49,253 nt of DNA. It comes from Catajapyx aquilonaris (lineage: Eukaryota). The stretch lies in contig JYFJ02002895.1 in the NCBI GenBank assembly GCA_000934665.2, forward strand, positions 1-49,253, given 5' to 3'. Below, piece by piece: positions 8,847 through 46,990 of this stretch (positions are counted from its first letter, which is position 1; every line of letters starts with the position of its first letter). The translations under genes and the position numbers were made by a program. The notes under the pieces were generated by a model, which made no database searches, had not been told where the DNA came from, and saw nothing but the letters and a program-made list of their open reading frames with translations.

Positions 8847-9248
<402 letters not shown>

Positions 9249-12179: not shown

Positions 12180-12524
12180 TAATATAATAATAATAATATC
12201 CGGGTAGTGCTTGGCCTTCTCGGCATATAGCACGGACCTTTATTTGTACGATGTACATATTTGGAACCTAATTATTGAAGCGCCCGGGCCCACGGGCAGG
12301 ATGATAGGAGGGGATGTGCAAGGTGCAGTGCAATGTCTTTATGTGGCCATTTTTAGTGAACTCCCCCGGGTGGTTTAGTCTGTAGGAAATACCACCCGAG
12401 GCGAAGCCAGAGGTGACCCAATGAACTCTGCACGAGATGAAGGGGGTGTCCCCGGGCTGGGATCGAACCCGGGACCTTAACATCCGTGGGCGCATACGTT
12501 ACCGCAGCACCACTCCGCCTCCCC
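12180..12524 (-). mobile_element. SINE family A
   Basis: 16-bp TSD gtaaagatgacaataa; class-2 3' stem-loop tail. Confidence 0.9.
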
Positions 12525-12863
12525 GTAAAGATGACAATAAGTCAATATAATGGGTCCTAGAATTATTAAATTTTGGCCTTAATTTTGTATTTGGGAACCA
12601 GAAATGTTCATTCACTGTATCTAAGGGTGTGTTCCATTCATATCTCATAGTATCTCATAGTTTTCTGTAATTATTCTCCACTTGCAATAAATATTTTTAT
12701 TAAGCACTATTTTTAACACATGTTGTGAACTTAACCAATGCTAATTTTCTTAACACAGATCTAGGTGCAGATGCTTCTGTTTGTGGAATGGCTTCAACTA
12801 GTGCATCCGGCACCAACGCTGTGCAATATGGGACTATGCATGAGAATGTGATGAACTTGGAAG

Positions 12864-13320
12864 CAGTGCCGGAATTACCCCCCACCCACCTCCACTTTAT
12901 AATTGATATATTTAAGGAGGTTGGCCCAGCATTGCCTTTCAACCTCCAAGGATAGGGAAGGAAGGAAGCGGCTGTGGCCTATTATACGGAAGCAACCCCG
13001 GAATTATCCTAGAAAGACCGTGGAGAACCACAGAAAACCACGGTCAAGGTTGCCGGCCACGGGATTCGAACCCAGGACCTCCCGATTAGCAGTCGGATGC
13101 CTTATCCACTATGCCAACCTGCTTCGGTAACCACCTCCACTGGCCGCCCTTCGACAATTACCTTTTCTGCCTGTAGTGGTAAATCAAGCTCTCAAAAATT
13201 TTCTTTCCTTTGTAATCTCGCCTTCATTTCCTATTATTGTATTTGAGAAATATTATTTATTGCAACTCGCGGCTGCTCCTAGGCCAGTACCTACTGTGCC
13301 TAATGGGAAATCTGGTGCTG
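12864..13320. mobile_element. hAT-type non-autonomous element inserted in an LDHD exon, containing a truncated SINE B (~12947-13128, minus)
   Basis: 8-bp TSD cttggaag (12856-12863, 13321-13328); termini cagtgccgga/tctggtgctg; removal restores ...[11 protein letters not shown]. Confidence 0.85.
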
Positions 13321-14232
13321 CTTGGAAGTTGTGCTACCTGATGGAAGTATATCTGCCACACAGCAGGAGAAGGTCAACACACTCGCAAGTCCTCTGCAGG
13401 ATACAATCTGACCAATTTGTTTGTGGGGTCAGAAGGAACTCTTGGAATTATCACTAAGGCAACTTTGAGGCTCTAAACCATACCAGAAGTTATGGAATCA
13501 GCTGTCTGTGCATTTCCTTCTGTTGGTGATGCAGTAGCGACTACCATAGAGACATTACAATGAAGCATTCCAGTTGCAAGAATTGGTTAGTCTTTTAATG
13601 TTGAAAGCATCATTAGTTGGAAAGATTTTTAAAAACTAACATTCATATTATTTTATCATTGCAGAATTCTTGGATGAGATGAGTATCAGGGCTGTGAACA
13701 AGTACAGTAAACTTAATTATGCTGAGCAAGCTTTCCCTGTTCCTCGAATTCCATGAATCTCCAACGGAAGTGCAAGCCCATGATAATCTAGTTGGTATGT
13801 TGCTCTTCTATTGTACAAGATTCACTCAGATGAAAGTGAGCAAGTCAACAGTATGTGGACAGATGGTGTGGCATAATTAGACTCATTTTAGAGCATGATT
13901 CCCTATTAAATGACTTGCAACAGTTCAATTACTAGTCTTGCCTTAGTTATTCCATGTTAGGTTTTCAGGGAGTTGCGGAAGTTAGGAGGTGTTGTAATAT
14001 ATTGCATCATGCTATGCAATAAGAACATGTTGTAGCATTGCACCATAATGGGCAATCAGTATACAGAACTCGAGGGATTTCCCCTCTCATCCCCCATCTC
14101 CAATAAGACCAGGCCACCCCCTCCTTACCTCACCTCCTCCCAACTCGCCCTATGCCTATCCACACACCTGAGACTGCTGAGAGTGAATCAGTCGTCGTCC
14201 TCCCACCATCCAAGTTGTAACTACGCTTAGTT

Positions 14233-14516
14233 TTTTTTTTTTTTTTTTGTTACCCCGTGATAGAGCTCGTGGCCCTCTTAGGGGGGAAGGGGAAGTTCCC
14301 AAGGGAGGGCGCCGTGCGATAGCCATTTCTGACATTCTTTAACACCAGGCCTTTTCTCCTGGCCCCGAGCAGAGAAGGGAGTGCAATTCTGCTCCGGCAT
14401 GTCGGGTGAAAAGCGGAAAAAGACCCGGCCAAGCAGAGGTGACGGGGACGGGATTTGAACCCCGGCCTCCCGCTTGGCTGGCCAGCGGCGTAACCGCTAG
14501 ACCACCATGCCGCCCC
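14233..14516 (-). mobile_element. SINE family C in an LDHD intron
   Basis: TSD aactacgcttagtt; poly(A) tail; near-identical to 9767-10058. Confidence 0.9.
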
Positions 14517-16921
14517 AACTACGCTTAGTTCAGTCTACAATATACAAACCTTATTATAACTTCTCAATTGACTCCGGCTATTTACTTGAAATACCCAACA
14601 ACACAAGACACGAAGTTATAACAGGAGGTAATAGTAAAATTACTGTTATAAGTAAGCACTTGTACCTTTGAGTGTGTAAAAATGGTTGGGATTCATGCTT
14701 GGTGTGCAAAACCTGTACTGCATAAGATGTCTAATGATTCTCTCTAACTGCTATGACGCTTGTCCAAAAATAAAAGCTAACCTGGCCAGTCAAACCCTTA
14801 TTACCCCTGTCCCCTAACGCCAATCCTTCGGCCAGAATTCAATATTATCAGCCACACAGATGCATTGGGCTAGGGATAGATACACTACCTCGCAGTGTTA
14901 CTCGTGCAAACGCCTTCTTTCCACTGTCAGATCCTACTAACGTGAATGACAAATGAATATGTCAAATGACAAAGTGGGCCATTGTTGTTATGTTGTGCCT
15001 AGCTTGCAGTTATAAGAGTTACCTGCACCCTGGGTCATGTTATGAATGCTTATTTTGCATTGACATGTACGCAAGATGCAGGGATTCCATCGAGTCAGTA
15101 CTCTCGCAACTTTGACCCCTTTGGGTAGGTATACCTTGGTGCCGGGCGACCGAGGGTATATATTCGCGGTTCTTCCTAGTGTGCTTCTTGGCAGTTCAGT
15201 AGTCTTCCGAGTATCTTCCACACCCCTTCAGGATGGCGACATGGCCAACCACCCACAGGTCAGTAGTATAGAAAGAGTATAGCATCCCATAAATCATCGC
15301 TCGCCTACATTTGGCTACCTGATGTTAAATAAACCATTATAATTGAAAGAGCATTGCGTGCATTATTCCCACCAGCTGACAGACCAGCCACAACCTGGTC
15401 GACAGTTACTGTATGTGGCAATTTATTTCATGATTAAATTATGACACTGTTGTGAAATGAAGAATTCTTTCTTTCTTTGTACTAGGGGAACTTGCAAAGG
15501 GCCATGGAGGTACTGACTTCAAGTGGAGCACTGACACTGAAGAAAGGAACTGCTTGTGGAAGGCATGCCATGATCTCTTCTATGCAGTTGGCAATTTAAG
15601 ATCTGGCTGCAAGCAGTATCTTACTGATGTTTGTGTACCAGTAACCTGAGAGAGGCCGTCGCTTTTGCCTAAGGGGAGATGGAAAAGGAAGGAATACTGG
15701 GTGCCATTTTGGGTCATGTCGGTGATGGAAATTTCCATTGCAATCTCACCTTTGACCCAAATTATCCCAAGGAGCTGTGCCCCAATTGCTGTGCAAAGAT
15801 GTTGCCTCAAGAATTGCAAGGTGAGACTATTGTTGTACAAACCTTAGGAGAATTTTACTAAATCTCCCAAGTGGCACCAGTCAGTTCTAATTAATTTATG
15901 ATTTTAGGTGTTTTGGAACTTTAATTGAATATTAGCTGCACTTTATTGGACTGAAGTAACTCATAGTGTCTGTTTATCATATTGTTGCAGGAAGGCTTTG
16001 GCTCTTCAAGGAACTTGCGCAGGAGAGCATGGTATTGGAGTAGGAAAGATTAAACTGTTGGAGGAGGAATTGGGTGCAACTGGTATTCGTATCATGAAGC
16101 AGATTAAGTCAGTTCTTAATTCAAATGGACTGATGAATCCTGAGAAAGTCTTGAGTCTTGCCTAGTCTGCAAAGTGCATTGAAACCTGTAAGACTGATTC
16201 TGGTAAGGAATCATTATTTCGTTACAATGTTTTCTTATTACTACACTGCATGCAGCACTTGTTAGTGTTGGTCTTAGGATGTTACAGCTCGTAAGTTAAT
16301 TTTCTAACAAGAAAAATATAATATTGATTCAGGATATACCAGCAATAGAAAAAGCAGGCACTGTAATTTTTCATACCACCATATCTCCATACCAATACTC
16401 TTGTGAGGATAGCCACGTAACTTGTGAGGACTTGCAAGAGTGCCAGTACGAATTTTGATGTTCTAATTTGGCAGCAAAAATATTGTATGAGAGAAGAATA
16501 CTGAAGTAATTTTAAAATTCTGGTATTTCACTAACTTCAGCTGCATTTGCATGTGAGCGAAGTAGAGTGAAATCTTCACCAGGGCTGAAATTAACTATTG
16601 ATTTTTGCCTCAAACAATATTGGTTACTTGGGTTACTCAGCCTTGGCAAAGGCTTCGCTGGTCAAATCGCTCACATGTAAATTCACCTTTATTCAAATAC
16701 TGTATATGAACTTCATGCTTACATAGTCAATAAGACACATGAGGTGTGTGGTGGAAAAACATGATAACCCACATTTTTGTCATTTTTGACCTAAACACCT
16801 AGCAACTATGTAAAAGACATGACAAACATTTTGGTATACTCAAAGTTCACATATCATCCACGAGACGGTAACACGAGCCAGATAACAACCCACTTGCCAT
16901 ACGAGTATTTTCTGGCACCTT

Positions 16922-17230
16922 ATTTATTTAATTTTTTTATTTTTATTATTCTACCCCGTGATAGGGCAGAGCCCTTTTAGGGGGGTGGCATACCAACGTC
17001 AGTTTTTCTTCGATTTTTCTGACTCTTACTTCACACATGGATGGGGCCAAGGATAGGGCCGGAAGGAAGCGACTGTGGCCTATTTTTACGAAAACGACCC
17101 CGGAATTGTCCTGGGGGGCCCGTAGGAAACCACAGAAAACTAAGGTCAGGGTCGCCGGCCCTGGGATTCGAACCCAGGACCTCCCAATTAGCACTCAGAC
17201 TCCATATCCACTACACCAACCTACTTCGGT
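16922..17230 (-). mobile_element. SINE family B
   Basis: TSD-like ttttctggcac; class-1 tail. Confidence 0.85.
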
Positions 17231-17936
17231 TGTTTTCTGGCACTTCTTCTCGTGGAAAACCCTGACAAGTGATAACCCACCAAATTTTTATACCCTTCAC
17301 ATTCTTCCATTTAATACAGGATGTAACAAAGGTTTCTAGCCCAGTCAATATTATAGAAGGGAAAGTCTCAGTTTTTTAAAGTTACCTCATCTGTTATGTT
17401 GATATTGTACTCCCATAATCTCCGGAATATGCTGTCCCCTGTATGACTCATTATTATCATATCCATATCCCTCCTGACTCTGCTTTTGTGCTCACATGAA
17501 TGAGATGTGTGCAATGCAAGTGTTGTCTGTCAATAAAATTCCTTGCAAGTGCTTTGTTATCAATGCCTGATTCCCCCCCCCCCCCCATTACCCCACTTAG
17601 GGAGCTACTTACTCCTTTGGGGGGGNTTTTGCGAATTTTATCAAAACATCCATTAAGGAACAGTAAATGAAAGACAAGACTTCCACAATGACACTTTAGA
17701 TTGGAAATTGGAAAACACTGCCCCTTTTTTTCTATTTGGAGGCCGACACTTGCCCCTCTTCCGTTTTGGATTTCGCGATGCGTTTCATGCAGTTATTACA
17801 ATGTTCCCTGGTTGTCATATGCGTGGGTGAAAATGGCTGAAATAATTTTTCCTACGTGATTTGACGACGCACTTGATATTTAAGCACAAATATCCTCTGG
17901 TGAGAATTTAGCTTATGTTATGTTTGAATAAACACT

Positions 17937-18282
17937 GGGGAGGCGAAGTGGCGCAACGGTAACGTTCGCGCCCACGGATGTTAAGGTCCCGGGTTCGATC
18001 CCGGCCCGGGGACACCCCCTTCATCTCGTGCAGAGTAAAGTGTCGTCTCTGACTTCGTCTCGGGTGGTATTTCCTACAGACTAAACCACCCGGGGGGAGC
18101 TCACAAAACGGCCACATGCGGACAAGGCACTGCACTTGCACATCCCCTCCTGTCATCCCTTCCTGCCCGTGGGCCCGGGCGTGATAAATAGGATCCAGAT
18201 GTACTGATGATGATTAATAATAAAGGTCCAGGCAAAACCCCAATAGGGGTACGCCCATACCCAATTATTATTATTATTATTA
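17937..18282 (+). mobile_element. SINE family A
   Basis: TSD gaataaacact; (TTA)n tail; class-2 stem-loop. Confidence 0.9.
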
Positions 18283-20574: not shown

Positions 20575-20825
20575 TTTGCATTAGAATCAATTTGCATTAA
20601 AATAAAAAAACTGCATTAGAATCAATTTGCATTAAAATAAAGAAAACTGCATTAGAATCATTTTGCATTAAAATAAAGAACTGCATTAGAATCATTTTGC
20701 ATTAAAATAAAAAAAACCATTAGAATCAATTTGCATTAAAATAAAGAAAACTGCATTAGAATCAATTGGCATTAAAATAAAAAAACTGCATTAGAATCAA
20801 TTTGCATAAAAAAAAAATGCATTAC
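20575..20825. repeat. ~35-bp minisatellite, ~7 units
   Basis: Unit ctgcattagaatcaatttgcattaaaataaa(g)aaaa repeated head to tail. Confidence 0.9.
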
Positions 20826-20999: not shown

Positions 21000-22385
21000 T
21001 TATCCATCTTGTCCATTGGCAATACTAGCACCTTCATCCAGCCAGGACAGGTCTGTCGAGGATGTACTCTCTAAAAACAACTTGAGCTCATGATCCTCAT
21101 TGGGACCTTCAATCTTCATCCGCACCTCATTGGGAACTTCAATCTGCATCCACTCCTCAATGGAAACTTCAATCTTCATCCCCTCCTCATTGGGAACTTC
21201 AATCTTCATCCGCTCCTTATTGGGAACTTCAATCTTCATCCGCTCCTCATTGGGAACTTCAATCTTCATCCACTCCTCATTGGGAACTTCAATCTTCATC
21301 CACTCCTCATTGGAAACTTCAATCTTCATCCGCTCCTCATTGGGAACTTCAATCTTCATCTGCTCCTCATTGGGAACTTCAATCTTCATCCGCTCCTCAT
21401 TGGGATCTTCAACTTTCATCCGCTTCATCGATGTTGGTATCTTATCACTGCACACCACCTCCTGTGCTGCTACATCATTTATCATCACCAGGTTTTTCTC
21501 TGCCTGCACACACAAGTAGACGTCATCATCTGAAAGCCCTGGCAATCCTTCCATCATCTCTTCTTCCTCAGGTGACCTTAGTGGCTTCTTGGCTTGATTT
21601 GTTACTTTTATTGGCACACCAACTGCCAGGTTAAGTTCATCCCACCTTTTAGCGACAATGCCCAACTTGCTAATTGATTCCTTCTGTTGTAGCAAGTCAC
21701 TGGCCTCTTGGCTTCTAACTTTATCAGTCAGTTCACGGGCTGCGCTGGGGAGAGATCTTCCCTTCTCCTGGAAGAACTTGTCCACCCATTGGAGAGCTTC
21801 CTGGTAGGATGGAATCTCAAGCTCATAGCGGATTTTACGCTGAAGAATAGAGGTGCACTTCTCGAGCTGTTCGCAGAGTGTGACTACCTGTTTGACAGAG
21901 TGTATTGGGGCATTAGTTACAGGTTTAGTCAAAACACATCTGAGAATGCACTTCTGGAACCTCCCACTTTTCAAGTTTCCACGGAGATGCCCTCTCGCAA
22001 CAAAAGGCATAAGCAGGGTCAACAAAAGGACACTATTTACTCCTATTGTTGAAGGGAAGGCGGAGTGGCACTGCGGTAACATATGCCCCCAAGGATGGAA
22101 GGGTCTCGGGTTCGATCCCAGCCTGGGGTCTCCCCCCTTCATCTCGTGCAGAGTTGGGTCGTCTCTGGCTTCGTCTTGGGTGGAATCTCTGACAGACTAA
22201 TCCACTCAGGGGAGTTCACAAAATGTGCCTTATTCAGACATTGCACTCGCACTTTGCACATCCCCTCCCAGTCACCCTGCCCTTGGATCAGGGTGATTCG
22301 TTCAAAGGTTCCAGTTGTATTGTACTTTAACGGTATAAATAAAGGTCCATGCAACACACCTCTTAAGGATGTCAAGCACTACCCG

Positions 22386-22457
<72 letters not shown>

Positions 22458-25606: not shown

Positions 25607-27338
25607 GACGTCACGTCACTCGTCCGGATCAAAATCTGGCGCTTCTTATGAAAACAGGTGCTCTGCATGGGGAAACGGGCTTTGTGACTGCGATTTGAGA
25701 CGGAAAACTCGAGTGACGTGCCAGTGTACGGTGGATTCTTGGTGAGGGGGATGTGCCTAGTACTCACCCATCACTGTCGCCCACCACCGGAGTGCAAACG
25801 ACCGCAACGGACCAAATTGGACCTTCGGTCGCCTCGCCGCGCCGCTGCCCTGTCCTTCTAATCCGACATTTTTTGCCGGAATATATGAACTTTGAGCCTA
25901 AATCGATTTTTCCCACGTTCTAGGCGCCTTATGGAGTTTTTCCAGCGTTGGAGAAACTACCAAAAGTTTCGGGTAATTTTTGTACAGTCGCGCAAAGTTT
26001 TAAAAACGGCGTAAATGAAAATCGCGTATTTACGGAGTATCTGATGGGGTGTGGTAGTCACTTTGGTGTCATTTCCCAGGTTTTAAGGGTCGAGGAACTC
26101 AATTATGGCATTTCCAAAAAAAAACAGTTCGTTTTCCGGAGCGCGTGAGTTCCGAACAGAACTGGTTGTCGTCTACCGCCATCCACTTCTTCTTCGATGA
26201 TGATAAAGTTAAGATGTTTGCACATTTTACAGAGTTCTGGTGTTTCAATGGCCTCATCTGTAGTCAATCAAACACTTACTGACCATTCCCTATCATACGT
26301 GCCCTATCATATTGCATCTTGCATGTTGTTCAGTTGTTGGAGTAATGCGATGGAGTAATTCCAACACGTGACGTGCTGAGAAAAAATTATTGCAATGTTT
26401 TCTCTGCTATTATCCTAGCTTATAAAATAAGTAACGAGCTGAAAAGAGAAGAGCTTCTTCCTAGTGATGTACAGTACACTGTACTCCCGATTATCCGAAT
26501 GCAGATTATCCGGGCATCGCCAAAATACAAAAAAATTAAACAATAAAAGTTAGTCCGAAAAATGTCGATATTTCTGGCAAACAGAAAAATTCCAGAGACT
26601 TTTTCTAGAAGGCAAACTAAAGATATACCGTATGTAAAGTATTTTATTATTAATATTAAACCTTATTTAAAGCCGCATACACCATGTAGAGACTAATAAT
26701 ATATAATAATTTACCCCGTCATAGAGCCATTGGCTCTCTTAGGGGGGGAGTTCATCCCATTTTTTTGTCAGGAACTATTTGCTTTTTACTTTTTGATTCG
26801 CTTTTTGGGAAGGGATAGGGATGGAAGGAAGCGGCTGTGGCCTGTTAATTATGGAAACAACTCCGGAATTTTCCTGGAGGGACCGTGGGAACCACAGAAA
26901 ACCACGTTCAGAGTTGCCGGCCCCGGGATTTGATCCCAGGACCTACACCAACCTGCTTCGGTAAACCATGTAGACTACATAGTATAGTAGTTAAAAACCT
27001 GTGAATAGCTCATTATTATGATGTTAATGACCATTTGCCGATTATCCGTGGCTTCCGATTATCCAGCGACACCCGTGCAGTTATTATCCCGGATAATCGG
27101 GAGTACAATGTAATTTTTACGTAGATTCCATTTGGTGCATACTTCAGAAATGACAGAAGTTAGGGCGGCAGTGATGGCTGAGCACTGGTCACATCCCCCT
27201 CACCAAGAATCCACCGTACACTGGCATGTCACTCGAGTTTTCCGTCTCAAATCGCAGTTCGCAAAGCCCGTTTCCCCATACTATACAGAGCGCCTGTTTT
27301 CATAATAAGCGCCAGTTTTGTCATCCAGGTGACGTCAC
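25607..27338. repeat. ~175-bp inverted repeat pair (25607-25782 / 27162-27338)
   Basis: Long reverse-complement identity, e.g. gatttgagacggaaaactcgagtgac / gtcactcgagttttccgtctcaaatc. Confidence 0.85.
26477..27110. mobile_element. Tc1/mariner (pogo-like) MITE carrying a SINE B insertion (~26696-26962, minus)
   Basis: TA|cactgtactcccgattatccg...cggataatcgggagtacaatg|TA; uninterrupted homolog at 44744-45076. Confidence 0.8.
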
Positions 27339-28232: not shown

Positions 28233-28234
<2 letters not shown>

Positions 28235-28283
<49 letters not shown>

Positions 28284-28576
28284 TTGATACCCCATTATCA
28301 GCCAACCGGGCTTTTCTAGGGGGGGGATTTCTCCCAATTTTTTTTTTGTCTGGAACTCCTTCCATTTTTACTACTTTTTCATCGGAATAAGGCAAGGATA
28401 GGGAAGGAAGGAAGCCGCTGTGGCCCATGATTACGGTAACGACCCTAGAATTATCCTGCGAGGGCCATGGGAAACCACAGAAAACCATGGTCAGGGTCGC
28501 CGGCCTCCGGGATTCGAACCTAGGACCTCCCGATTAGCAGTCGGACACCATACCATTCCACCACTACTGCTTCGGT
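28235..28576 (-). mobile_element. SINE family B
   Basis: 15-bp TSD ggtttggtttagtta; (TTA)n tail; class-1 stem-loop. Confidence 0.9.
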
Positions 28577-28853
28577 GGTTTGGTTTAGTTAATGTCAGAT
28601 AGAATGGGTTAGGTAAGGGTAGGTTTAGGAAAGCCAATTACCTGATGTGATGCTGTGTATGACCTGCAATATTGTTTTCACTTGAGGCAGTCAGAATAAT
28701 ATTGAATAGCTAGGTTTTATGCCCATATCTTGTAAATAGCTTAATAACACTCTCCTTACAAAGTATGTGTTTTGCTAAAAAGTGCATCAAAAATGGCACC
28801 AGCTGTAAAAGCAGTATGGAGTGCATGTAGGTAATACAAGGACATGGCACATA

Positions 28854-31030: not shown

Positions 31031-31471
31031 TTTATCAATGTAATACTTTTTGCAACTGCAACTATTGGATTGCCAGCGACGATAAGACTTTTTCAATGAG
31101 AAAAAAGTCTAAAAGGGGTATAGGGGAGAATCATTCAAACCCTTTTATAGGGCTGAAATTCTATCCATAATGTTTAATTTGCTCATTTTTAGATTGGAGA
31201 GTGCATCAAATTTCAATGTGATACATAAGATCTTGCACAGATTTACACAAGCTGACAAAGGTGACATGGCATAGCAGAAATATATTTTTGTACATCTCAG
31301 CAGCATTGAAAAAGCTGAATTAACCTTAACAAGAAGATGGGAATTTCTCCAGTGTAATAGGCATGCAGGAGGTTTTGGGTTAGTGTGTGCAACCTCTTAG
31401 GAAGGCCAGACCTTTCACATCCAAGATAGTGGTAGGTCATTGCTTAAAAAGTTTATTGCCTTCATTACAGG

Positions 31472-32467
31472 ATGATGTCCCAGCAAGTAGTAGATGTTGG
31501 CCATATGCGAGCAGTCCCATCAGCATGCATGGAATGGCCCATCCAACATTTTTCAATCAACATGGATTTGGACAAGCCATTACGTTCTCCATGGTTTTCA
31601 ACCTACCCTGAGATTCACTGCTGTTGGAGAATGGCTGTTATCCAATTGACATCAGCGAAACCGTATTTCTCTGTATACGTTTGGTACTCTTCTCCAGGAA
31701 AGGAAGATGACAAAGTTGTTATGTTACTTGAGCTGGGGATTATAAACAAAGGCCTTGAAACTTGTAATGTTCAGAAGAAGAAGGTGAATCCTTCAACCGG
31801 AGGTATTCTCTTCACAAATTTTCAGATTCTTGAGCATCTGCTCCTTAAATCAGATGAGTGGATGCCAAATAACACTTTAACTTTGCAATTGAAGGTCATG
31901 TGGCACCATCCCAGTACCATTGCTCCATCATTTATGAAACTGGGAAATGACATGCTCCAGTTGTATACATCTAGAAACCTCACAGATGTAACACTTGTGT
32001 CCAAGGACAACAAGGAAATTTGTGCCCATAAGGCAGTCCTTGGTGCTCGAAGTGGAGTATTTGCTGCCATGTTCAGCAATGACATGATGGAGAAGAAAAC
32101 TGGTAAGGTAGAGATCAGAGACTTTGATGCAGATGTTCTTGAGGAGATGCTGTACTATATGTACACTGATGAGCAGCCTAAAAATTTGTTCACTTTGGGA
32201 GCTGAAATTCTTGTTGCTGCTGACAAGTATGATGTGGCAGGGCTTAAGAGAATGTGTGAAAATTCTCTCATGCAGTCACTATCACTTGAAAAAATAGTTC
32301 CAACTATAAATATTGCTATGCAAGGCAATTCTGAAAAGTTGAAGCAGTATTGTGTTCAGAATGCTGTGAAATCACTTCCAGCGTGGAAGACTAGCGCCTA
32401 TTGGAAGGATGCCTCAACCCTTCCTCCTGACATATTGGTTGAAATACTTGGGGCAACAGTGAAGTAA
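31472..32467 (+). CDS. SPOP/roadkill-like MATH-BTB (TD and POZ) protein, CDS in a single exon
   Basis: 331-aa ORF. BTB motifs DVTLV...AHKAVLGARSGVFAAMF...EIRDFDADVLEEMLYYMYT...AADKYDVAGLKRMCE; N-terminal divergent MATH-like region ending in WMPNNTLTLQLKV. Splice acceptor ttcattacag at 31470 directly before the ATG. Confidence 0.88.
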   Translation: MMSQQVVDVGHMRAVPSACMEWPIQHFSINMDLDKPLRSPWFSTYPEIHCCWRMAVIQLTSAKPYFSVYVWYSSPGKEDDKVVMLLELGIINKGLETCNVQKKKVNPSTGGILFTNFQILEHLLLKSDEWMPNNTLTLQLKVMWHHPSTIAPSFMKLGNDMLQLYTSRNLTDVTLVSKDNKEICAHKAVLGARSGVFAAMFSNDMMEKKTGKVEIRDFDADVLEEMLYYMYTDEQPKNLFTLGAEILVAADKYDVAGLKRMCENSLMQSLSLEKIVPTINIAMQGNSEKLKQYCVQNAVKSLPAWKTSAYWKDASTLPPDILVEILGATVK

Positions 32468-33010: not shown

Positions 33011-33321
33011 GGGGAGGCGGAGTGGTGCTGCGGTAACGCACGCGCCCACGGATGTTATGGTCCCGGGTTCGATCCCAACCCAGGGTTCCCCCCTTCATCT
33101 CGTGCAGAGTTGGGCCATCTCGGGCTTCGTCTCGGGTGGAAATTTCCCCTAGACTAATCCACCCGGGGGAGTTCACAAAATGACCAATATGCAACATTGC
33201 ACTCTCACTTTGCACATCCCCTCCTACTTACCCTTGGAACAATTAACTTATACACATTATATGGTTCCAAAAAATAGTGGTGTTCCACTCCCCTAAAAAG
33301 GGCCCAAGGCCTGAGGGGTAC
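33011..33321 (+). mobile_element. SINE family A with class-1 tail
   Basis: Family-A head and body followed by cccctaaaaagggcccaaggcctgaggggta. Confidence 0.85.
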
Positions 33322-34680
33322 TGTAAAAAAAAAGAGATGCGTTTTATGCCAGGCAGGTACTCAAGTCGAGTGTTCGCCTGCCACCTTTTGTGTCTATTCA
33401 GTCGGCTTCGAATGGTCATGGAAGAAAGGTCACCGCATTTCCAAATTCAGGCTCATCCGGATTTTAAGCTGTGCATAAAATACCTTTGGCTAAGTACTAC
33501 TTACCCTCATGTAGCAATTTGAATGTGACCGCGAAATATTGGTGCCAGGCACTCCTTTGTTGAGGCCTCCATCACGCATATTTGTCACGTCATTGATTTG
33601 ATTTCAAAGACGAAACGAAAAGGATTTCACAATATTTCACTTCGAATCTCACATTAAACGAAGACTAGACTGCCTAGTTATAGGGTGCATTTACACTAGC
33701 GGGTGAAACGCGTTTGGAGCCCGTTTGGATGACGTCAGAGACGCGGTCAGGAGCAGTTACACTAGGGACGTGGTGGGAGCCCGTTCCCTGAAACACGGTT
33801 CTTCCAGATGCAGTCGGGAGTGTGTTAGGAGGGAGTGAGACGTGACTCCGGTGGTGCGCGTACTGTATCTCGGTACCATAGTCTGGGCGCTGGGTGCCTT
33901 CGCATGGTCAGAGAAAGAGACGAAGGATGTCAGCGTGATGCATTTCAGAAGTAGCAGTGGCGGTTGCTTTTTTTCTTTATCTTTCAGTGCAATAATAGTC
34001 AGAAAAATACAATTAGCAAGGTCTTTGGCTTCCCAAACACCAGGGCTATTATTTTGTATTTAATTTCATTCAGTGCACAATATTATCATGCCAATCCATG
34101 CCGGGTAATCGTAATGTACTGTACTATACTGCATATACACTGTAGTGTATTACGATTTTTTAATTTTTGTATCTGAGACTATACGTCATACCTGCAATGA
34201 GCTTCTCTCCATCAATAATGATGATTAACTATTGCAAACATTCGAGTATTACACAGAGATAAACCTAGCTCTGTCGGTAACCTGTTACCTGTAGGCCGGG
34301 TTGCACAACTGAAGATTTTACTACAGAAAATACGTAGTAGGCTACAAATAAGTAGGGATTTTCCTAAAGAACCGGGGTTTTATCATAAACCGGTGGGTGA
34401 AACTGTCCCTCATCCATTGTTGTGATCAAATTCATAGGTTCACTAATTTCGAATTGAGAACAATTCTTAAGTCAATTCATTTCCGAAATAAACGCAATCC
34501 ACAGCTCAATTCAAGTCAGTTCTGCATTCCAAGGAAATTTAATGCAAGCATTTAGAATTATTCAATCAATAACAACGTTATCAACCACAATTACGTACAA
34601 GTCAGAATGTTGTAATTCTCATTACAATTCCATTCATCAGTTTGGAATTAATTCCGAATTAATGCAAGTCCATAGCACTA

Positions 34681-35233: not shown

Positions 35234-35338
35234 ATCGCGTCTTAGTGTAACACCACTGTCAGGTCATCGCGTCTTAGTGTAACACCACTGTCAGGTCATC
35301 GCGTCTTAGTGTAACACCACTGTCAGGTCATCGCGTCT
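35234..35338. repeat. 32-bp perfect tandem repeat x3.3
   Basis: atcgcgtcttagtgtaacaccactgtcaggtc, subterminal in the Harbinger-like element. Confidence 0.9.
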
Positions 35339-35423: not shown

Positions 35424-35679
35424 AGAGGGCAACACGATGGCGGAGTGGTTAGCGCCGCAGCCTTCCACCTCTAAGGACCCGAGTTCGATCCCCGAGTCGG
35501 ACGGAGGATTCTTATGTGGATAGAGTTTCGATGGTTTCTCTCCGTGTTCGTGTGGGTTTTCTTGGGGTTCTCCCGTTTCCTCCCGCTATCAAAATCCATC
35601 ACAGCGCAGGCAATGATTAAAGTCGGTTAAATAAAAGATTATCCCCTAAGAGGCCCAAGGAGGCTTAGCACGGGGTATC

Positions 35680-35754
<75 letters not shown>

Positions 35755-35813
35755 CATTATTGTTGTTATTATTATTATTATTATTATTATCATTATTATT
35801 GTTGTTGTTGTTG

Positions 35814-35870
<57 letters not shown>
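35424..35870 (+). mobile_element. tRNA-derived SINE family E with V-domain-like core and long (TTA)n tail
   Basis: Head tggcggagtggttagcg...gagttcgatccc; core gagtttcgatggtttctctccgtgttcgtgtgggttttcttggggttctcccgtttcctccc; class-1 tail; degenerate copy at ~43010-43150. Confidence 0.8.
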
Positions 35871-35875
<5 letters not shown>

Positions 35876-36189
35876 TAGGGTACTCACTTCGTTTCAATAC
35901 CACATAATGCCACATTTTTTCCAAAAAGGGGGCAGCATTTGTCATGCTACTCCAACAAAAGTTGCAATTATGTGCACTTAAAACTAAGTGAATCTATAAC
36001 AAGGGAATCTAGTCATTCATTTGGTGTGTCATTCAAAGGGAAACTTGTGAAATTCACTACTATTCATCTTGAAAATCAGAGGAATATCGTGACCTTCGTG
36101 ACAAATCCGCGCGGAATGGAAGCCATTTTTGTCCAAGCATTTCCGCATTTGGACACACTGTGCAGGATCAGGAAAACTAATTTATTATA

Positions 36190-37243: not shown

Positions 37244-37244
37244 T

Positions 37245-37533
37245 TTTTCTCTCTCCTTCTTTTTTGTTACCCCGTGATAGAGCTCGTGGCGCTCTTAGGG
37301 GGGAAGGGGAAGTTCCCAAGGGAGGGCGCCGTGCGATAGCCATTTCTGACATTCTTTAACACCAGGCCTTTTCTCCTGGCCCCGAGCAGAGAAGGGAGTG
37401 CAATTCTGCCCCGGCATGTCGGGTGAAAAGCGGAAAAAGACCCGGCCAAGCAGAGGTGACGGGGACGGGATTTGAACCCCGGCCTCCCACTTGGCTGGCC
37501 AGCGGCGTAACCGCTAGACCACCATGCCGTCCC
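37245..37533 (-). mobile_element. SINE family C
   Basis: Near-identical to the other C copies; head fragment also at ~43290-43342. Confidence 0.9.
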
Positions 37534-39591
37534 GATATGAATTATTTACCTTGCCTATTCAGAATCCTATTAATTCAACATTCCACTATTAGATCATACG
37601 AGTGATTATTTGAGTACATTACTATAGATTATTTGAAAACATTAGAAACGGGGGGGGGGGGATGGATTTACCATGTTTGCAGCTGTATTTGTTTATTCTT
37701 TCATATCATGACTACAGGCTCTCCCCTGAATAAAGTTTTCTAGTAACATGTGAAGGTCACTCAGAGCAAGGCCCCATTGGGAGGGCAGAAGGGAAGGGTC
37801 TAGAACTGTAGATCACATTACTCATAAGAATGATACATGATGCCCCACACTTGAACTGTTGGAGAAGGATGCACTCCAATGCCTGACTGCACATGGCAGT
37901 CTTTGTATAGGGTGTACCGGGTTCCTTTAGTTATCCCTAATACCATCAAATGTAGTTACTTTTTGTAGCTTGTTGAACCCCAATCAAGGTGCCCAAATAC
38001 ATAGCAACCTGGGAATAACTGGATCAGTGTTCAACAGGTGACCAAAAAAAAAACTACTCTGGGCAATATTAGCAATTTTTAACTAAAAGCTACTGGATAC
38101 TTGGAACACCATGTATGGGCGTTTTTCTCAGTAAATCTCTGGAGGTTAACATAGTGCACCTTTGAGCACCCAGATCTTCATCAAGATCTTATGAGTGTAT
38201 CAACCTTTTGTACCCCAATAGGCTCCAAATGATCTGTTTGCTCCATATCTTGGGTTATGCCCAATATGTGGGATATATATTTTTTTTAAAATATTTTTAT
38301 TGGGGATTGTAATATTGTTCTACCAAAAAATTCACTTGATCATGACTTGAAGCGATTGACACTATCAGGTAAACAACTCCAAAGAATATTCTTTGCTTGG
38401 GGCACCACTGTCTATTGTGTTCAAATCTGTCCTTATATATTATATATACATATATGACTGACCCCCCACAACCTCACCCCATCCTTACTTCTCCCCTTTC
38501 CCCCCTGCCAGAATAATAATATAAGTTCTGATATATGAGCCAAAACAAAGTGTTTTATTTAATGTGGCATCAGAAGGTCACCTTCCTGTGACGATCATTC
38601 CGCTTTGAGCTATTTTACAAATAATAAATGTCCCACTAGGACAATCAGAGATTTTCCTATCTCACCAAGCCTTCTCTTTCTCCTCCCATTGTTTCTTCGC
38701 AGCCACCATCTTGCAGATGTTGAGGGCTTTGAAGTGATTCTTGCTATTCTTCTCATGGGACTGCAGCTGGGGGAAATGCTGTATAGTAGGCCTACCTGTG
38801 GCCTTTGAGTGCTTCGACATCATGTGATTGATGGAAGGTGTCCGGATAGGATTGACAAGGAGGGACGGTGGAGGTATACACAAAGAAGCAGAATGATGTT
38901 GAGTCCTTTGTTCAACATACACCCTGCACAATAACAATACATGTTGGGTGACCACAACGTATGTGGCGTATTCAGGGTCCACCCCTGGTTGGACATTGAT
39001 TAGGGGTACTCCCTTGGCAGTCATGGTCCTATGGAGCTCCCGTATGCTGTAGGGCATAGGAGTACATTTGTTCTGCACAAAAAATGGGAATGAATGTATA
39101 CAGGATAGTACCATCATAAACTAGGGTGACTTGGGACAGGGGTGGGACTTGGGACAGGGATGGGACTTGAGACACTGTTGCAATTTTTTCACATTGACAG
39201 GTACCTGTCCATTCTTCAGAATGGATGGTTGGACAAAGAGCATTCTGCAGACTGGACGGTTTGACATGGAGCATTCTGCGGAATTGATGGTTTGGCATAG
39301 AGCATTCTGCAGTATATGGACGTTTTTTTCGCCCAATGGCCGTTTTCGGGGTACATAATTATGTATTATTTTCAAATCCTTGAAGTCTGATTGTTTTCAT
39401 TGCCCAGTTAAAAATTAGAATAAATAAATGATGCACAGATATTACACAGGGCAACTTGGGACACTAATAAATCATAAATTAATGGACATCATAAATCATT
39501 ATCAATAATATAATCTGAAATCATGTGTAATCACCATTAAATCATAAGCCATGCACACAATCACAATTATTTATTTACAGTATTTATTTTG

Positions 39592-39880
39592 GTACCCCAT
39601 GCTAGGGCCGTGGAATACCACCATTTTTTGGGAACCATATAATATTTATATTATTTAATTGTTTCAAGGGTAAGTGGAAGGGATGTGCAAAGTCGCAATG
39701 TCGTTGCTTGGTCATTTTGTGAACTCCCCCAGGTGAGTCTAGCGGAAATTTCCACCCGAGACATAGCCAGAGATGGCCCAACTCTGCCCGAGATGAAGGG
39801 GGGAACCCCGGGTTGGGTTCGAACCCAGGACCTTAACATCCGTGGGCACATACGTTACCGCAGTGCCACTCCGCTTACCT
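39592..39880 (-). mobile_element. SINE family A with partly deleted class-1 tail
   Basis: Shares ccttggaacaattaa...ggttccaaaaaa-type linker with the 33011 copy. Confidence 0.85.
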
Positions 39881-40298: not shown

Positions 40299-40376
40299 CT
40301 CCTGGAAAATTTGTCTGGCCGAAAAAGAGCCAGGATATATCCTGGCTCTTTTTCGGCCAGACAAATTTTCCAGGAG
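40299..40376. repeat. Perfect 78-bp palindrome with no spacer
   Basis: ctcctggaaaatttgtctggccgaaaaagagccaggata|tatcctggctctttttcggccagacaaattttccaggag. Confidence 0.95.
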
Positions 40377-40469
40377 GCTTGATCTCATTGAATCCAATTT
40401 TCGATGATCACCATCTGTAATGCCAAGGTAATGCATATTTCACATCGACTTTCAATCTTTGGATACATT

Positions 40470-40470
<1 letters not shown>

Positions 40471-40543
<73 letters not shown>

Positions 40544-40872
40544 CCGGGGTAGGGCTAGACCTCATCCGAGGTATGCAGCACGCGGACCTATATTTATTAT
40601 ATCAAGTACATTTGAGCCTTTTTACGTAGCGCCCGGGCCCATGGGCAGGATGACAGGAGGGGATGTGCAAGGTGCAGTGCAATGTCTTAAACGTGGCCAT
40701 TTTTAGTGAACTCCCCCGGGAGGTTTAGTCTGTGGAAATACCACCCGAGACGAAGCCAGAGGTGACCCTGAACTCTGCACGAGATGAAGGGGGTGTCCCC
40801 GGGTTGGGATCGAACCCGGGACCTTAACATCCGTGGGCGCATACATTACCGCAGCACCACTCCGCCTCCCCC
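40471..40872 (-). mobile_element. SINE family A
   Basis: TSD-like ctttgg(a/t)tacatttt; (TTA)n tail; class-2 stem-loop. Confidence 0.88.
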
Positions 40873-43646: not shown

Positions 43647-44052
43647 CAGGGTGGTCCAACTTTTTTGTCCGAACAGCTATCACACAGCTATTGACAAATT
43701 CGGCCTAAGCTGCTTATGCTGTAGTGCGTTACCTGGCAACCCCGGCCGGCGGGCTAATTCAAACATCAGCACATGGAGAGTGCTTAGTCGCACCTCTCAG
43801 AGTTGGAGTATGTGCAGGTTCTCATGGTGCTCCTCTGCCACTGGGGCCAGGTTAATTGTGTATTTTTAGAGCCCTGGAAGCTCTTGGCCGGATATGGATA
43901 TGGAATCGACAATGGAAAGAACACCACTCGTCTCCATGGGCTGATGTTTGAATTGGCCCGCCGGCCGGGGTTGCCAGGTAACTCACTACAACATAAGCAG
44001 CTTAGGCCGAATTTGTCAATAGCTGTTCGGACAAAAAAGTTGGACCACCCTG
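43647..44052. mobile_element. Tc1/mariner MITE with ~135-bp TIRs
   Basis: TA|cagggtggtccaacttttttgtccgaacagctat...atagctgttcggacaaaaaagttggaccaccctg|TA. Confidence 0.88.
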
Positions 44053-44198
44053 TATAAGGTCTTCCTATTTTTTCTTTTTTTCTTGTATGCACTTGAGGAG
44101 TAACACCATTTCCCTGCATGTATTTAGTGGTTAGTCATATATTACTGTGAGAGCTTCAAATGCCAGGTTTGGTTGGTAATATGGAAATTGGTAAATTA

Positions 44199-46495
44199 CA
44201 CTGGCCAACAAATTTTTGTGGCATTGATGCCAGCACTTGTTCTTACCTAATTCGAGCGTGCTGAATCCAAATCTGATGTTAGTTTTTCTCGATAAGCTCC
44301 AGATTTAGAACTGTGGTTCGTTCCTTTGCCTATGCTGTACCTGTGCCCAAGGAACAGTGAATAGGCCGTAGGCCAGGAAGCGCAATACTCGATGCGCGGG
44401 AAAAAAGTGTTGTCGTCACGAGCCTGTGTGACGTCACCTGGTTCACCTCTTGTTTTGCTCCCAACGCAAAGCTAATGGGATCACGCCTACAGACGGGGAA
44501 TGTGGCGCTTTACGGCCCTATGTATGACTACAGATTTATCGCATATTTTTTTCAATGAACCTATGGTGATCAGGAATTTGGCAAACTACTTTTCGTTTGT
44601 TATTCTATGAAATAAACAATTTTAAATTACAATAAAAGAAACCCCCCCATCGATTGCCTCGGGGCATTCAATGATATTCAATGATGGAATTCATGGCTTA
44701 TCGACAGGCAAATATCACGCTACCCTTTTCATATTGTATTATACACTGTACTCCAGATTATCCGGGCTAATGACTGCACGGGTGTTGCGCTGTTGCCGGA
44801 TAATCGGAAAACAGTCATAAACACCCCAAAATTCAGCCATTCACAGGTTTTTAATGTGCTACTGTTCGTCATAGTGTATAGGCTGTTTTAACTCCGGAAT
44901 AATCAAAATAATGAAACTTAACATATGTTTTAAATATGTCTTCTAGAAAAAGCCGGTCTTATATGGTATTTCTTAGTTTGCGAGACATATTGACATTGTC
45001 TGAGACTTTTCTTCTTTGAATTTCATTTTTTGGTGATACACGAATAATCCGCACCCGGATAATTGGTATTACAGTGTATATACTGTATGTTACATATAAT
45101 AATTATTTATATACAGTATGTTACAGCATATGCATACTGGCATTTAGTTTGAATTTTAAGAGCATTTACCGCGATGAGGAAAATTAGCTACGAAAGGATG
45201 TGCAAAATAGGGGACAAATTGCTCCCAGCTCTTCGAAAATAGCACTTTCTCAGACTTTCTATCGGAAGCGCGGTATAAAAGTCCAGTGTAAGTGATTGAA
45301 AGGAGCTGAAGAGAAGCGGTGACGAGTAGCCTATATGTGTGCATGTTGATGTAGGGTGGGCCTTTGACAGGATAAATGTGTACGGTGAGTCAATTAAATC
45401 CACCCTTTTCGCCAAATATAATACCCGTACTTATTTTGCCGTTGTACCCTCTCGCAAACGACGCTAAATATTTCTTAAAGGTGCGAACGAAAAGTAGAAG
45501 TAAATTATTTGTGGCCATTGTTACGGCACGTCACCAGAGGACGAACTATTTGCACGTCAACAGCGGTAGGCTAACAAGTTCACTGGGAATTTCATCCCTA
45601 ACAGCTGAACTCCATTCATCTACCATTGTTATTGGTGCTCGTCTTAAACATCCTGTCTTTGTTCGTTCAGTTTCTCCTGAAGCAGGAGAGCAGCAATCAT
45701 ATGTTTTCAAAATAAAATAAAACTATCCTATTATGTATGGAAGAAAGCTCTGCACCTGATTCTACGACTTTATGAAGATGGTGAAGGAATGGGCCGTAAC
45801 TTTTATGCTGTTGCATGGTGATTCCGTGAGCAGGAAGCCCGGCGCAATAAGAACTTGGCGGAAAGTGTTTGAAGGAAAATATCCTCACACCCAAAAGAAC
45901 GCCATTTGCATTACATTTTCGGACAAGAACATTTGAACCGCATCCAGAACCGTCGGTTAAAACAACAAAAACGGGAACGCGATCAAAACACACCAGAAAG
46001 GGGCTGCCATCTATAGAAGTCCGCGTGATTCCTCCCAGCCCTTTTGAACTGCCGCGACTGCCAGTGAACTGGTCGCGTCATCCGCGGGGGAGCCAATCAG
46101 AGGACAGAATGAGCATTGCTCATCCTGTGTATATTCTGTAATCTTTGCCTCTGCCCGCGTAAAGGCAAAAGTGGCCCTTTTGGGAAGATGGCTCGAAGCT
46201 CTATATAGGGAGGTTGGTTTGGCACATTTAACACATTTGACATGAAAGGGCTATGGTTATGATAGATGATAGTTAAGCCTAATTCTCAAGCTAACCCTAA
46301 TGTAAATAGCAAGGGGTGTCCTTTATTGCGAAAATCACAAGTTTCAACTTGCATGAAAACTATAGCTTGGAGAGGAAAACTGATTTAAGATTTGAAATCA
46401 GCGTTGAAAAAATACTTAGAATCAGTTGAAAAATCTCATGCATCAGATTTTTTGTTCTTCTCTTCTTCTTCTTCTTTTTTTTTTTTTGGCCAGTG
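44199..46495. mobile_element. Chapaev3-like non-autonomous element with nested insertions
   Basis: TTA|cactggccaa...ttggccagtg|TTA; subterminal inverted gctgaatccaaatct / agatttgaaatcagc. Confidence 0.55.
44744..45076. mobile_element. pogo-like MITE (same family as 26477-27110, opposite orientation)
   Basis: TA|cactgtactccagattatccgg...ccggataattggtattacagtg|TA. Confidence 0.75.
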
Positions 46496-46661
46496 TTATC
46501 AGAACGGGGTATCCTAGGTGTAGGAAAGCCATGCGTGAGTATCTGAATGCAGGCTCCCCAGGTTTCTAGTGACATAAACGTAGGCATATAAAAATGTGTG
46601 AGTTTCACATAAATGTATTTCCTTGTGGCAGGATTTAAAGGGTCGACTTTGTAACAGATTA

Positions 46662-46990
46662 TAATTGGTGTAGTGCATACCCTCACAAGGGTTTCGCACG
46701 GACCTTTATTTTCCTCATCAAGGATATACAGTTTTGTCTCGACGAAGTGCCTGGGTCCGTTGGCAGGGTGACTGGGAGGGGATGTACGAGGTACAGTGTA
46801 ATGTTGTTACCGTGGTCATTTTGTGAACTCCCCCGGGTGGTTAGTCTAGCGGAAATCCCACCCGAGACAAAGCCTGAGATGACCCTGAACTCCACATGAG
46901 ATGAATGGGGGAATGCCCAGGCATGGGATCGAACCCTGGACCCTTTTATCCATGGGTGCACACATTACCGTAGCGCCACTCCGCTTCCCC
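46662..46990 (-). mobile_element. SINE family A
   Basis: TSD ctttgta(a/t)cagattat; class-2 tail. Confidence 0.85.

Follow-up and report, generated by a model that had tools for sequence, protein, structure and literature searches.

Variable stem-loop tails on closely related bodies in a SINE family of Catajapyx aquilonaris: support for tail heterogeneity or exchange

SINEs need a LINE enzyme that recognises their 3' end, and the way in which this dependence is kept or changed determines the set of repeat families that expands in a genome. In the stringent-type LINE/SINE pairs (eel UnaL2/UnaSINE1, zebrafish ZfL2), a 3' stem-loop and a terminal short repeat are common to both partners. The U6-L1 chimeras are chimeric retrocopies that arise by template switching of the LINE reverse transcriptase. 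It is an established concept that SINEs can come to use different LINEs by exchanging tails (PMC4758252, PMC11481361, PMC5729268). Among the mosaic tRNA-derived SINEs, the HCD-SINEs of molluscs have several LINE partners (PMC11481361), and gastropods and bivalves have the 'jigsaw' SINEs (PMC4758252); both papers discuss template switching or recombination as the exchange route. PMC5729268 describes bird SINEs mobilised by CR1, which end in a hairpin and an 8-bp microsatellite, and a chimeric origin of PittSINE through template switching by a LINE reverse transcriptase. Since the mosaic evolution of SINEs through exchanged tails has been published before, and the family described here (family A) would be a further example, the gain lies in detail and not in concept.

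The window, that is, the whole stretch of 49,253 nucleotides that was analysed, was searched over its full length by blastn and revealed eight copies of family A, each approximately 280-350 nt, in 49 kb. They are short, non-coding, interspersed and multi-copy, as SINEs are. In six of the eight copies, target-site duplications of 11-16 nt adjoin the head and the terminal repeat and enclose body and tail as a single unit; a further one, at the copy A39k, is doubtful. A B-box-like motif, GGTTCGATCCC, is exact in 6/8 copies. ARAGORN and the Rfam tRNA model gave matches in the heads of a second family, B, only, the family-A heads being without a match; the copy A12k, searched against Rfam with E up to 1, gave no tRNA match and no meaningful match. 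Family A is probably a LINE-dependent SINE of approximately 330 nt whose head is tRNA-like, with a putative polymerase III B box, and whose 3' end is modular.

Five of the eight copies end in what we call the class-2 tail (AATAAA-GGTCC-GTGC, a variable hairpin, then GCAC-TACCC-(ATT)n), and all five lie at the positions and on the strands given in the preliminary description of this DNA. In this module of approximately 85 nt, an AT-rich leader, which usually contains AGGTTCCA, is followed by AATAAA, a three-tier stem-loop, TACCC and (ATT)n. The copy A12k (12175-12525, blastn 12197-12525, minus strand) comprises the body (12298-12525), a linker hairpin (12281-12297), the class-2 tail (12199-12280) and (ATT)n (12175-12198), and has a 16 nt target-site duplication, TTATTGTCATCTTTAC. 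A18k (17937-18282, blastn 17937-18265, plus strand) has the inner stem ACCCC/GGGGT, followed by (ATT)6, and has the target-site duplication GAATAAACACT. A22k (22054-22456, blastn 22054-22390, plus strand) ends in (ATT)24. The tail of A40k (40471-40871, blastn 40542-40871, minus strand) is a divergent class-2 tail with the inner stem ACCTC/GAGGT and a terminal (ATT)24; the duplication is 15 nt with one mismatch. A46k (46667-46990, minus strand) is an older copy, with the inner stem ACCCT/AGGGT, one ATT unit and a 16 nt duplication with one mismatch. The sequence AATAAAGGTCC occurs exactly four times in the window, each time in a family-A tail. When one mismatch is allowed, there are 7 matches against 1.46 expected, and the extra three are the A40k tail and two sites, at 10369 and 38623, of unrelated sequence.

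Two copies carry a different, class-1 tail, as had been described: A33k (33011-33330, plus strand; CCCC...GGGGTAC), which terminates in A9 and not in (ATT)n and has the duplication GAGATGCGTTT, and A39k (39592-39874, minus strand), in which the tail is degraded. The eighth copy, A2k (2212-2500, blastn 2212-2437, plus strand), shows a third 3' arrangement that is neither of the two tails. Here, ATGGTGGAATTCCAC... directly abuts the body at ...CCCT and resembles hairpin 1 of class 1; a target-site duplication was looked for at this copy and none was found. The class-1 tail is common to the two family-A copies and to SINE families B, C and D. Family B, with a tRNA-Ser(GCT)-like head, is represented at 8846-9248 (plus strand; class-1 tail, (ATT)37) and by further minus-strand copies at 12946-13129, 16948-17236, 26712-26960 and 28234-28582; the only two Rfam tRNA matches above the gathering score in the window are both in heads of this family. 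Family C (35440-35877, plus strand) has the class-1 tail and a long (ATT)n, and family D (14231-14525, minus strand) has the class-1 tail and an A19 end, with near-identical copies at 9764-10057 and 37270-37545 (both minus strand). The two classes show no significant local similarity to each other, in agreement with the earlier picture of one body with unrelated 3' modules. Both have a terminal (ATT)n and a GGTTCCA-type motif.

The three-tier fold (GGU/ACC, GUGC/GCAC and the inner hairpin) is the minimum-energy structure, or near it, in all five trimmed class-2 cores. On the five intervals of the preliminary description, the fold z-scores are -2.0, -2.5, -1.1, +0.1 (A40k) and -2.3. For the inner hairpin, comparison with 2000 shuffles gave p values of 0.031, 0.0005, 0.049, 0.118 and 0.0145, and 1.2e-5 when combined. 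The inner hairpin of A40k is not better than its shuffles (p 0.118), and this tail has GCCC where a clean GCAC arm is expected; in A22k, three of the four middle-tier positions pair. A MAFFT alignment of the five tails was out of structural register and was set aside, so the pair changes were read from single-sequence folds instead. Approximately three compensatory changes were identified, a count that is a reading of folds on only five tails and not a formal covariation test. A18k has C-G at inner pairs 4 and 5, where A40k has U-A at pair 4 and A46k has U-A at pair 5; at middle pair 2, the G-C of A18k stands against U-A in both A12k and A46k. These changes and the combined shuffle value bear out the conserved pairing that had been proposed for the tails. 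The conserved stem-loop of the class-2 tails lies next to the terminal short tandem repeat.

The bodies of the class-2 copies are 74-95% identical, and all ten tail pairs fall at 60-65% whatever the identity of their bodies; the bodies are indeed much more alike than the tails. Between A12k and A40k, body and linker match at 227/239 positions and the tail at 59/92 (Fisher p 7e-12), and the mismatch rate over aligned positions rises from 3% in the body to 23% in the tail, with a sharp boundary at the linker. The bodies of these two copies are 95-97% identical, and both have CCGGAT just before the repeat. Families B and D served as controls, the latter as one in which the tail tracks the body. 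Over aligned positions, family-B bodies are 83-88% and 3' parts 77-84% identical, and the corresponding values for family D are 98-99.5% for bodies and 98.7-100% for tails; neither family has a gap between body and tail like that of family A. Separate histories of tails and bodies within class 2 are supported.

Could the hairpins have arisen by chance in short segments that contain GC, and could the tails vary through nothing more than the ordinary decay of old copies? Stems of 3 bp, as in A12k and the middle tier of A22k, are common by chance, and A40k fails to beat its shuffles. The combined shuffle value, however, and the presence of the three-tier layout in 5/5 copies speak against this explanation, as do A12k and A40k, which are young by their bodies and intact target-site duplications and nevertheless strongly different in their tails. 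The identities of tails and bodies together with the shuffle tests largely refute it, and we regard it as very improbable.

The breakpoint had been placed after ...CCCT. This position holds between the classes, where the divergence of class 1 from class 2 begins; it does not hold within class 2, where similarity collapses 17 nt further on, past the linker GCCCGTGGGCCCGGGCG. The GC-rich linker folds as a hairpin in all five class-2 copies, and that of A22k carries a G-C to U-A change.

The same boundary appears in contigs of the species itself, taken from four DNA runs of one sample that is possibly the source of the window assembly, at a likeness of at least 80%. No RNA run is listed as containing the stretch, which has no bearing on expression. 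Between 3,502 and 4,063 contigs per run match one family-A copy. In run X1, summing the word depth gives 127k-900k for the body and 406k for the linker bin; the bin after it has 83k, the tail 2.5k-6.5k and the single-copy flank 71. The shape of the profile is alike in the other three runs. The summed body depth, which is not a copy number, exceeds the depth of the single-copy flank by a factor of 10^3-10^4. Where the linker hairpin ends and the tail begins, the summed depth drops approximately 60-100-fold, in a measure that by its nature gives no copy number and cannot rank the parts of a stretch. Bins 12100-12201 are without cover, repeats being skipped there. Loose contig ends at 12271 and 12277 run into GGTTCCA-like sequence with an agreement of only 0.56-0.85. 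Taken together, the gap between body and tail and the fall in depth at the linker support tail heterogeneity or exchange in family A. Some contigs span an A12k-like tail and the body; a given tail variant is therefore passed on together with its body for at least a while.

The class-2 tails align in one register, starting 9-12 nt before AGGTTCCA; such an alignment agrees equally well with exchange and with descent under fast drift. The variation might then reflect many old master lineages without any class-2 exchange, the body being held by selection and the tail drifting under the pairing constraint only. The full-length homology of the tails, with AGGTTCCA, AATAAAGGTCC, GCAC and TACCC as common landmarks and with compensatory changes, would agree with this, as would the CCGGAT common to A12k and A40k and the contigs that bridge tail and body. 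The body, however, is not so constrained, since family-A subfamilies differ by 15-26% over its whole length. The abrupt rise in mismatches at the linker between A12k and A40k, and the absence of such a gap in families B and D, also argue against master lineages, which we consider rather unlikely.

The only LINE in the window is a 5'-truncated fragment (5080-6525, plus strand) with the C-terminal half of a reverse transcriptase (YADD), a C-x2-C...H-x4-C motif and a 3' UTR that ends in a C-run/G-run stem-loop, TATGCTCAATAT and (ATT)5. Pfam identified RVT_1 alone. In the protein atlas, the fragment falls into unnamed clusters with a weak 'Mollusca' hint, which serves as a lead only. Its ending in a stem-loop and (ATT)n was counted for the modular-tail explanation given below. 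The preliminary description had proposed a fuller model, in which 3' ends of at least two LINE groups are captured repeatedly and each tail variant matches the 3' UTR of a LINE subfamily. Several observations would suit it: classes 1 and 2 lack significant mutual similarity, class 1 is also found on families B, C and D as a common partner would predict, the window does hold a LINE with this type of ending, and AATAAA, found in many LINE 3' UTRs, lies inside the tail. The LINE 3' end (6400-6512), however, stays at or below the 95th percentile of shuffles against all five class-2 tails and likewise against most class-1 tails. No LINE with a class-1 or class-2 tail lies within the window, and homology of a tail to a partner LINE was not found at its one LINE 3' end; the claim that LINE 3' ends from two groups were the donors drew no support from it. 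The (ATT)n and the GGTTCCA-type motif of both classes could serve related reverse transcriptases and not two groups. The family-A body tree has one supported split and requires just one change between the classes, so repeated capture between them is not needed. A single switch between class 1 and class 2 explains the window, and class 1 may have a single origin. We judge the full capture model to be improbable.

The explanation we favour, and to which we give about an even chance, is a modular 3' end: a LINE-dependent family A in which the tail is replaced separately from the body and the pairing is kept. We infer that stem-loop and repeat are the signal by which the reverse transcriptase of an (ATT)n-ended LINE recognises the RNA and primes on it. 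Selection would then preserve the pairing while the sequence drifts. Between the classes, at least one replacement of the tail would have taken place, its breakpoint lying after ...CCCT; among the diverged class-2 variants, there were most likely several replacements, with the breakpoint right behind the linker hairpin. The probable route would be either recombination or a template switch of the reverse transcriptase among RNAs with (ATT)n-type tails, and such RNAs the presumed tail source.

A more radical form, which appears quite unlikely, is that family A has no fixed tail and acquires one freshly at most retrotransposition events. A few conserved source copies would make RNA in which the GC-rich linker hairpin serves as the usable 3' end. 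The reverse transcriptase would begin on whichever (ATT)n-ended RNA it has bound, be it another SINE or a LINE mRNA, copy approximately 85 nt of it and jump onto the family-A RNA at the linker hairpin. If this were true, uniform bodies would be joined to tails drawn from the whole diversity of the partner population, with the required stem-loop kept.

Under the modular 3' end that we prefer, family A is a clean small-scale case: a body conserved at 95-97%, a tail variable in sequence with its structure kept and beginning at a sharp hairpin boundary, and a second tail type on other nearby SINE families. If exchange is frequent, the locus would be well suited to measuring how a non-L1 LINE reverse transcriptase switches templates, and would help to show which features of a stem-loop with (ATT)n such an enzyme reads.

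Elsewhere, a 15-nt body motif gave 19 loci in viral contigs, all chance matches by blastn. A two-block body pattern gave 0 loci in metagenome contigs, and the class-2 tail pattern gave at least 120. Ten window elements compared by blastn with the 139 viral and metagenome loci listed gave no match at E up to 1e-4. Four motifs were absent from the searched supplements of PMC4758252 and PMC4824008 (all but one file of each). Six motifs returned nothing relevant from the full-text literature, and family A may still be in Repbase or SINEBase. For the named HCD superfamilies (CORE, V, Deu, Meta, MESC, Nin-DC, Ceph and Snail), these motif look-ups gave nothing.

Family A resembles the mosaic SINEs described in PMC11481361 and PMC4758252 in its head-body-tail build, with one body carrying different tails and one tail (class 1) present on different SINE families (A-D). 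Unlike the mosaic HCD-SINEs, family A is without an identified named central domain, as judged by motif look-ups only. Its strong tail variation on nearly identical bodies is on a finer scale than the family-level exchanges described there (PMC11481361, PMC4758252). As in the stringent-type pairs and the CR1-mobilised bird SINEs, the stem-loop lies directly upstream of a 3'-terminal short tandem repeat, and pairing is conserved more than sequence. Unlike in those pairs and bird SINEs, the repeat unit is ATT, the stem-loop has three tiers, the window holds no LINE with the same tail and recognition is putative. Like the U6-L1 chimeras and PittSINE, family A has one target-site duplication around a composite whose 3' and 5' histories differ. 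Those systems have variable junctions or a single event, whereas family A has its junction at a fixed place, the linker hairpin, and 3' parts that show homology to one another.

A blastn search of the window with three family-A copies as queries identified eight copies of this SINE family, named here by their start in kilobases: A2k (2212-2437, +), A12k (12197-12525, -), A18k (17937-18265, +), A22k (22054-22390, +), A33k (33011-33330, +), A39k (39592-39874, -), A40k (40542-40871, -) and A46k (46667-46990, -). Their alignment showed that around 220 nt are common to all eight. This shared part consists of a tRNA-like head containing GGTTCGATCCC, followed by a body with ...TTGCACATCCCCTCC..TCA.CCCT as its 3' end. 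After the CCCT, five copies (A12k, A18k, A22k, A40k and A46k) continue with a GC-rich linker (GCCCGTGGGCCCGGGCG or a variant), an AT-rich stretch in which AGGTTCCA is usually present, AATAAA (AATATA in A40k), GGTCC, a stem-loop, TACCC and (ATT)n. These class-2 tails lie exactly where a preliminary description had placed them. The same description had assigned another tail to A33k and A39k, and in both the CCCT is indeed followed by a different module (class 1) that ends in CCCC...GGGGTAC. Target-site duplications of 11-16 nt, present in 6/8 copies, enclose the head, body, tail and repeat together as a unit; thus, each copy is a single retroposition product. The eighth copy, A2k, had not been listed before. 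Here (2212-2500, +) the CCCT runs straight into ATGGTGGAATTCCAC..., and the usual AT-rich leader is absent. This ATGGTGGAATTCCAC matches the first hairpin of the A39k class-1 module at 14 of 15 positions. A target-site duplication and a terminal repeat were looked for in 2212-2500, and neither was found.

The preliminary observation that the bodies are more alike than the tails was borne out by pairwise global alignments of the five class-2 copies (ten pairs), with the tail defined as the segment between linker and repeat. Body identity is 74-95% and linker identity 53-100%, and the tail identity stays at 60-65% in all ten pairs, independent of the body identity. The sharpest contrast is between A12k and A40k, which agree in 211/222 columns of the body, 16/17 of the linker and 59/92 of the tail (body plus linker against tail, Fisher p = 7e-12; p = 6e-7 with mismatches only). 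The differences between these two tails are distributed over the whole tail, in the hairpin and beyond it. Two other SINE families served as controls. The older family B has bodies that are 83-88% identical and 3' parts that are 77-84% identical over aligned positions. The corresponding values for the young family D (three copies) are 98-99.5% and 98.7-100% for bodies and tails. The body-tail gap is thus specific to family A with class-2 tails and is not a general trait of the SINE tails in the window. Drift without exchange, with many old source lineages in which tails drifted and bodies were constrained, is a possible but rather doubtful explanation of this gap.

For A12k, the boundary could also be followed in public sequencing contigs of the same species. 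The region is contained in four DNA runs from one sample, which is possibly the source of the window itself, and Logan contigs with a likeness of at least 80% were mapped to 12100-12600 (A12k and its flanks; 3,502-4,063 contigs per run). The units are contigs and not reads, and their depth is neither a copy number nor a ranking of the parts of the stretch; with only a very large, sharply placed drop interpreted, the summed word depth in run X1 is 71 in the single-copy 5' flank, 127,000-900,000 in the body bins, 406,000 in the linker bin (12287-12303), 83,000 in the bin 12270-12286 and 2,500-6,500 in the tail bins. The shape of the profile is alike in the remaining three runs. The all-depth values are 509,024 at 12305, 46,238 at 12280, 13,373 at 12274 and 7,526 at 12271. 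The last linker position is 12281 and the first tail position 12280, so the depth collapses at the linker/tail boundary. This drop is consistent with the five tails in the window. Loose contig ends at 12271 and 12277 run, on the element strand, into sequence resembling AGGATTCC... and AAGGTTCCAAAATGTA... These continuations agree at only 0.56-0.85; for random genomic sequence flanking the element on its 5' side, the value is 0.36-0.40. A few contigs (records 1, 9 and 25) join an A12k-like tail to the body.

The class-2 stem-loop has three tiers, GGU/ACC, GUGC/GCAC and a variable inner hairpin. Folded on the intervals of the preliminary description, the three-tier structure is the minimum-energy structure in A18k (z -2.5), A22k (z -1.1) and A46k (z -2.3) and close to it in A12k (z -2.0); A40k gives a z of +0.1. 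The layered structure is found in all five cores trimmed from GGTCC to ACCC. Compared with 2000 shuffles, the inner segments of the five trimmed cores give p values of 0.031, 0.0005, 0.049, 0.118 and 0.0145, which pool to a combined p of 1.2e-5 (Fisher). The inner stems are ACCCC/GGGGT in A18k, ACCCT/AGGGT in A46k, ACCTC/GAGGT in A40k, ACACCT/AGG-TGT in A22k and GCC/GGC in A12k. That the hairpins are chance structures is very improbable and is largely excluded by the body and tail identities together with the inner-hairpin shuffle tests. Two-sided changes that keep the pairing occur at two inner pairs (pairs 4 and 5, each C-G to U-A) and one middle pair (pair 2, U-A to G-C in A18k). With five sequences and pairs taken from single-sequence folds, this covariation is real but thin. 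The MAFFT alignment of the tails is out of structural register. The linker (12281-12297 in A12k and the same place in the other four copies) also forms a hairpin in 5/5 copies (-4.0 to -9.7 kcal/mol); in A22k a G-C pair has become U-A and the hairpin is kept. It is exactly at the linker that the five copies cease to be similar.

The class-1 module, CCCCCCTAAGAG-[hairpin]-...CACGGGGTA(C), is present on SINE families B, C and D as well as on A33k and A39k. Its 3' terminus is usually (ATT)n, and A-rich runs are seen in family D (A19 in one copy) and A33k (A9), so that two types of terminal repeat are combined with this one module. Family B copies lie at 8846-9248 (+), 12946-13129 (-), 16948-17236 (-), 26712-26960 (-) and 28234-28582 (-), and those of family D at 9764-10057, 14231-14525 and 37270-37545 (all -). 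The family B head is tRNA-Ser(GCT)-like, and ARAGORN and Rfam still score two of these heads, at 8853 and 13051, as tRNA-Ser(GCT). The class-1 inner hairpins differ among four family B copies, with GAGCC/GGCTC at 8k and 26k, GGGC/GCCC at 17k and GCC/GGC at 28k. Classes 1 and 2 have no significant local similarity to each other (the A12k-A33k score of 18 equals the 95th percentile of shuffles). Both have a GGTTCCA-type motif upstream and the same terminal repeat.

The evidence used here comprises the 49-kb window, the contigs on A12k and published papers. The window (G+C 42%) is eukaryotic DNA with scattered exons and dense short interspersed repeats. Host coding sequence on the plus strand includes a C2H2 zinc-finger ORF of 506 aa (2689-4206), an exon for the last part of an FAD-linked oxidase (D-lactate-dehydrogenase-like C-terminus; 15929-16162) and a BTB/POZ domain exon (31448-32464). 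Tandem arrays are found at 20577-20824 (35 nt x 7), 21094-21424 (30 nt x 11) and 35234-35338 (32 nt x 3.3). The frame of the 30-nt array stays open on the minus strand, within a 398-aa ORF (21003-22196) that extends into A22k.

The only LINE in the window (5080-6525, +) is 5'-truncated and has frame breaks. It retains RVT_1, the C-terminal half of the reverse transcriptase with YADD, and a C-terminal CCHC-like motif (C-x2-C...H-x4-C). Its neighbours in the protein atlas are unnamed clusters with a weak hint of Mollusca. In the 3' UTR, a C-run/G-run stem-loop precedes (ATT)5, which shows that the C. aquilonaris genome has LINEs ending in a stem-loop and (ATT)n. The 3' end of this LINE scores at chance level with all class-2 tails and with most of the class-1 tails, and therefore no partner LINE was identified for either class within the window. 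Directly after the (ATT)5 lies a GC-rich element of approximately 260 nt (6527-6866, +) with the terminus ...CGGCTTTATATAG(ATT)27; neither a second copy in the window nor an obvious terminal hairpin was found.

In the maximum-likelihood tree of the eight bodies, a single split is supported; it separates A12k, A40k and A18k from the rest (100/100), and no branching is resolved among A2k, A22k, A33k, A39k and A46k. The class-1 arrangement may have a single origin, which is compatible with this tree. The preliminary interpretation, that the SINE-A body repeatedly captured the 3' ends of at least two LINE groups, is supported in part. Repeated swapping between the classes is not required by the window, where one switch, or two counting A2k, suffices. 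Direct and repeated capture of 3' UTRs from two LINE groups by family A, which predicts LINE counterparts for the tails, seems improbable. We interpret family A as a LINE-dependent SINE with an exchangeable, putative 3' recognition module. The most likely account of class 2, with about an even chance, is that the tails have been repeatedly replaced relative to the bodies. The replacement would proceed by reverse transcriptase template switching or by recombination, at or beside the linker hairpin, with a diverse pool of homologous tails as the source. The tails would stay foldable because selection favours those that an (ATT)n-type LINE reverse transcriptase recognises.

In L2-type partners, a hairpin-plus-microsatellite 3' end is the standard and, from work on UnaL2, is reportedly read by the reverse transcriptase. 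A full-text motif search, with Repbase and SINEBase outside its scope, returned three unrelated papers and no printed description of family A. Its motifs do not occur in the searched supplement files of PMC4758252 and PMC4824008 (all but one file of each). That SINEs exchange modules with one another and with LINEs is already published (PMC4758252, PMC11481361, PMC5729268), and the mechanisms named are template switching and recombination (PMC4758252). Bivalve SINE superfamilies are described as using at least four LINE clades in a 'mosaic' scenario (PMC11481361). Template switching is given as a particularly common route to new SINE tails, by which different LINEs are parasitised, and a 3' hairpin and microsatellite that the reverse transcriptase recognises are likewise standard for CR1-type partners (PMC5729268). 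Compared with these mosaic SINEs, family A is less usual in scale, with near-identical bodies carrying tails that are only approximately 64% alike, and its body/tail boundary is fixed at a hairpin. Module exchange itself is already known; family A adds an unusually fine scale.
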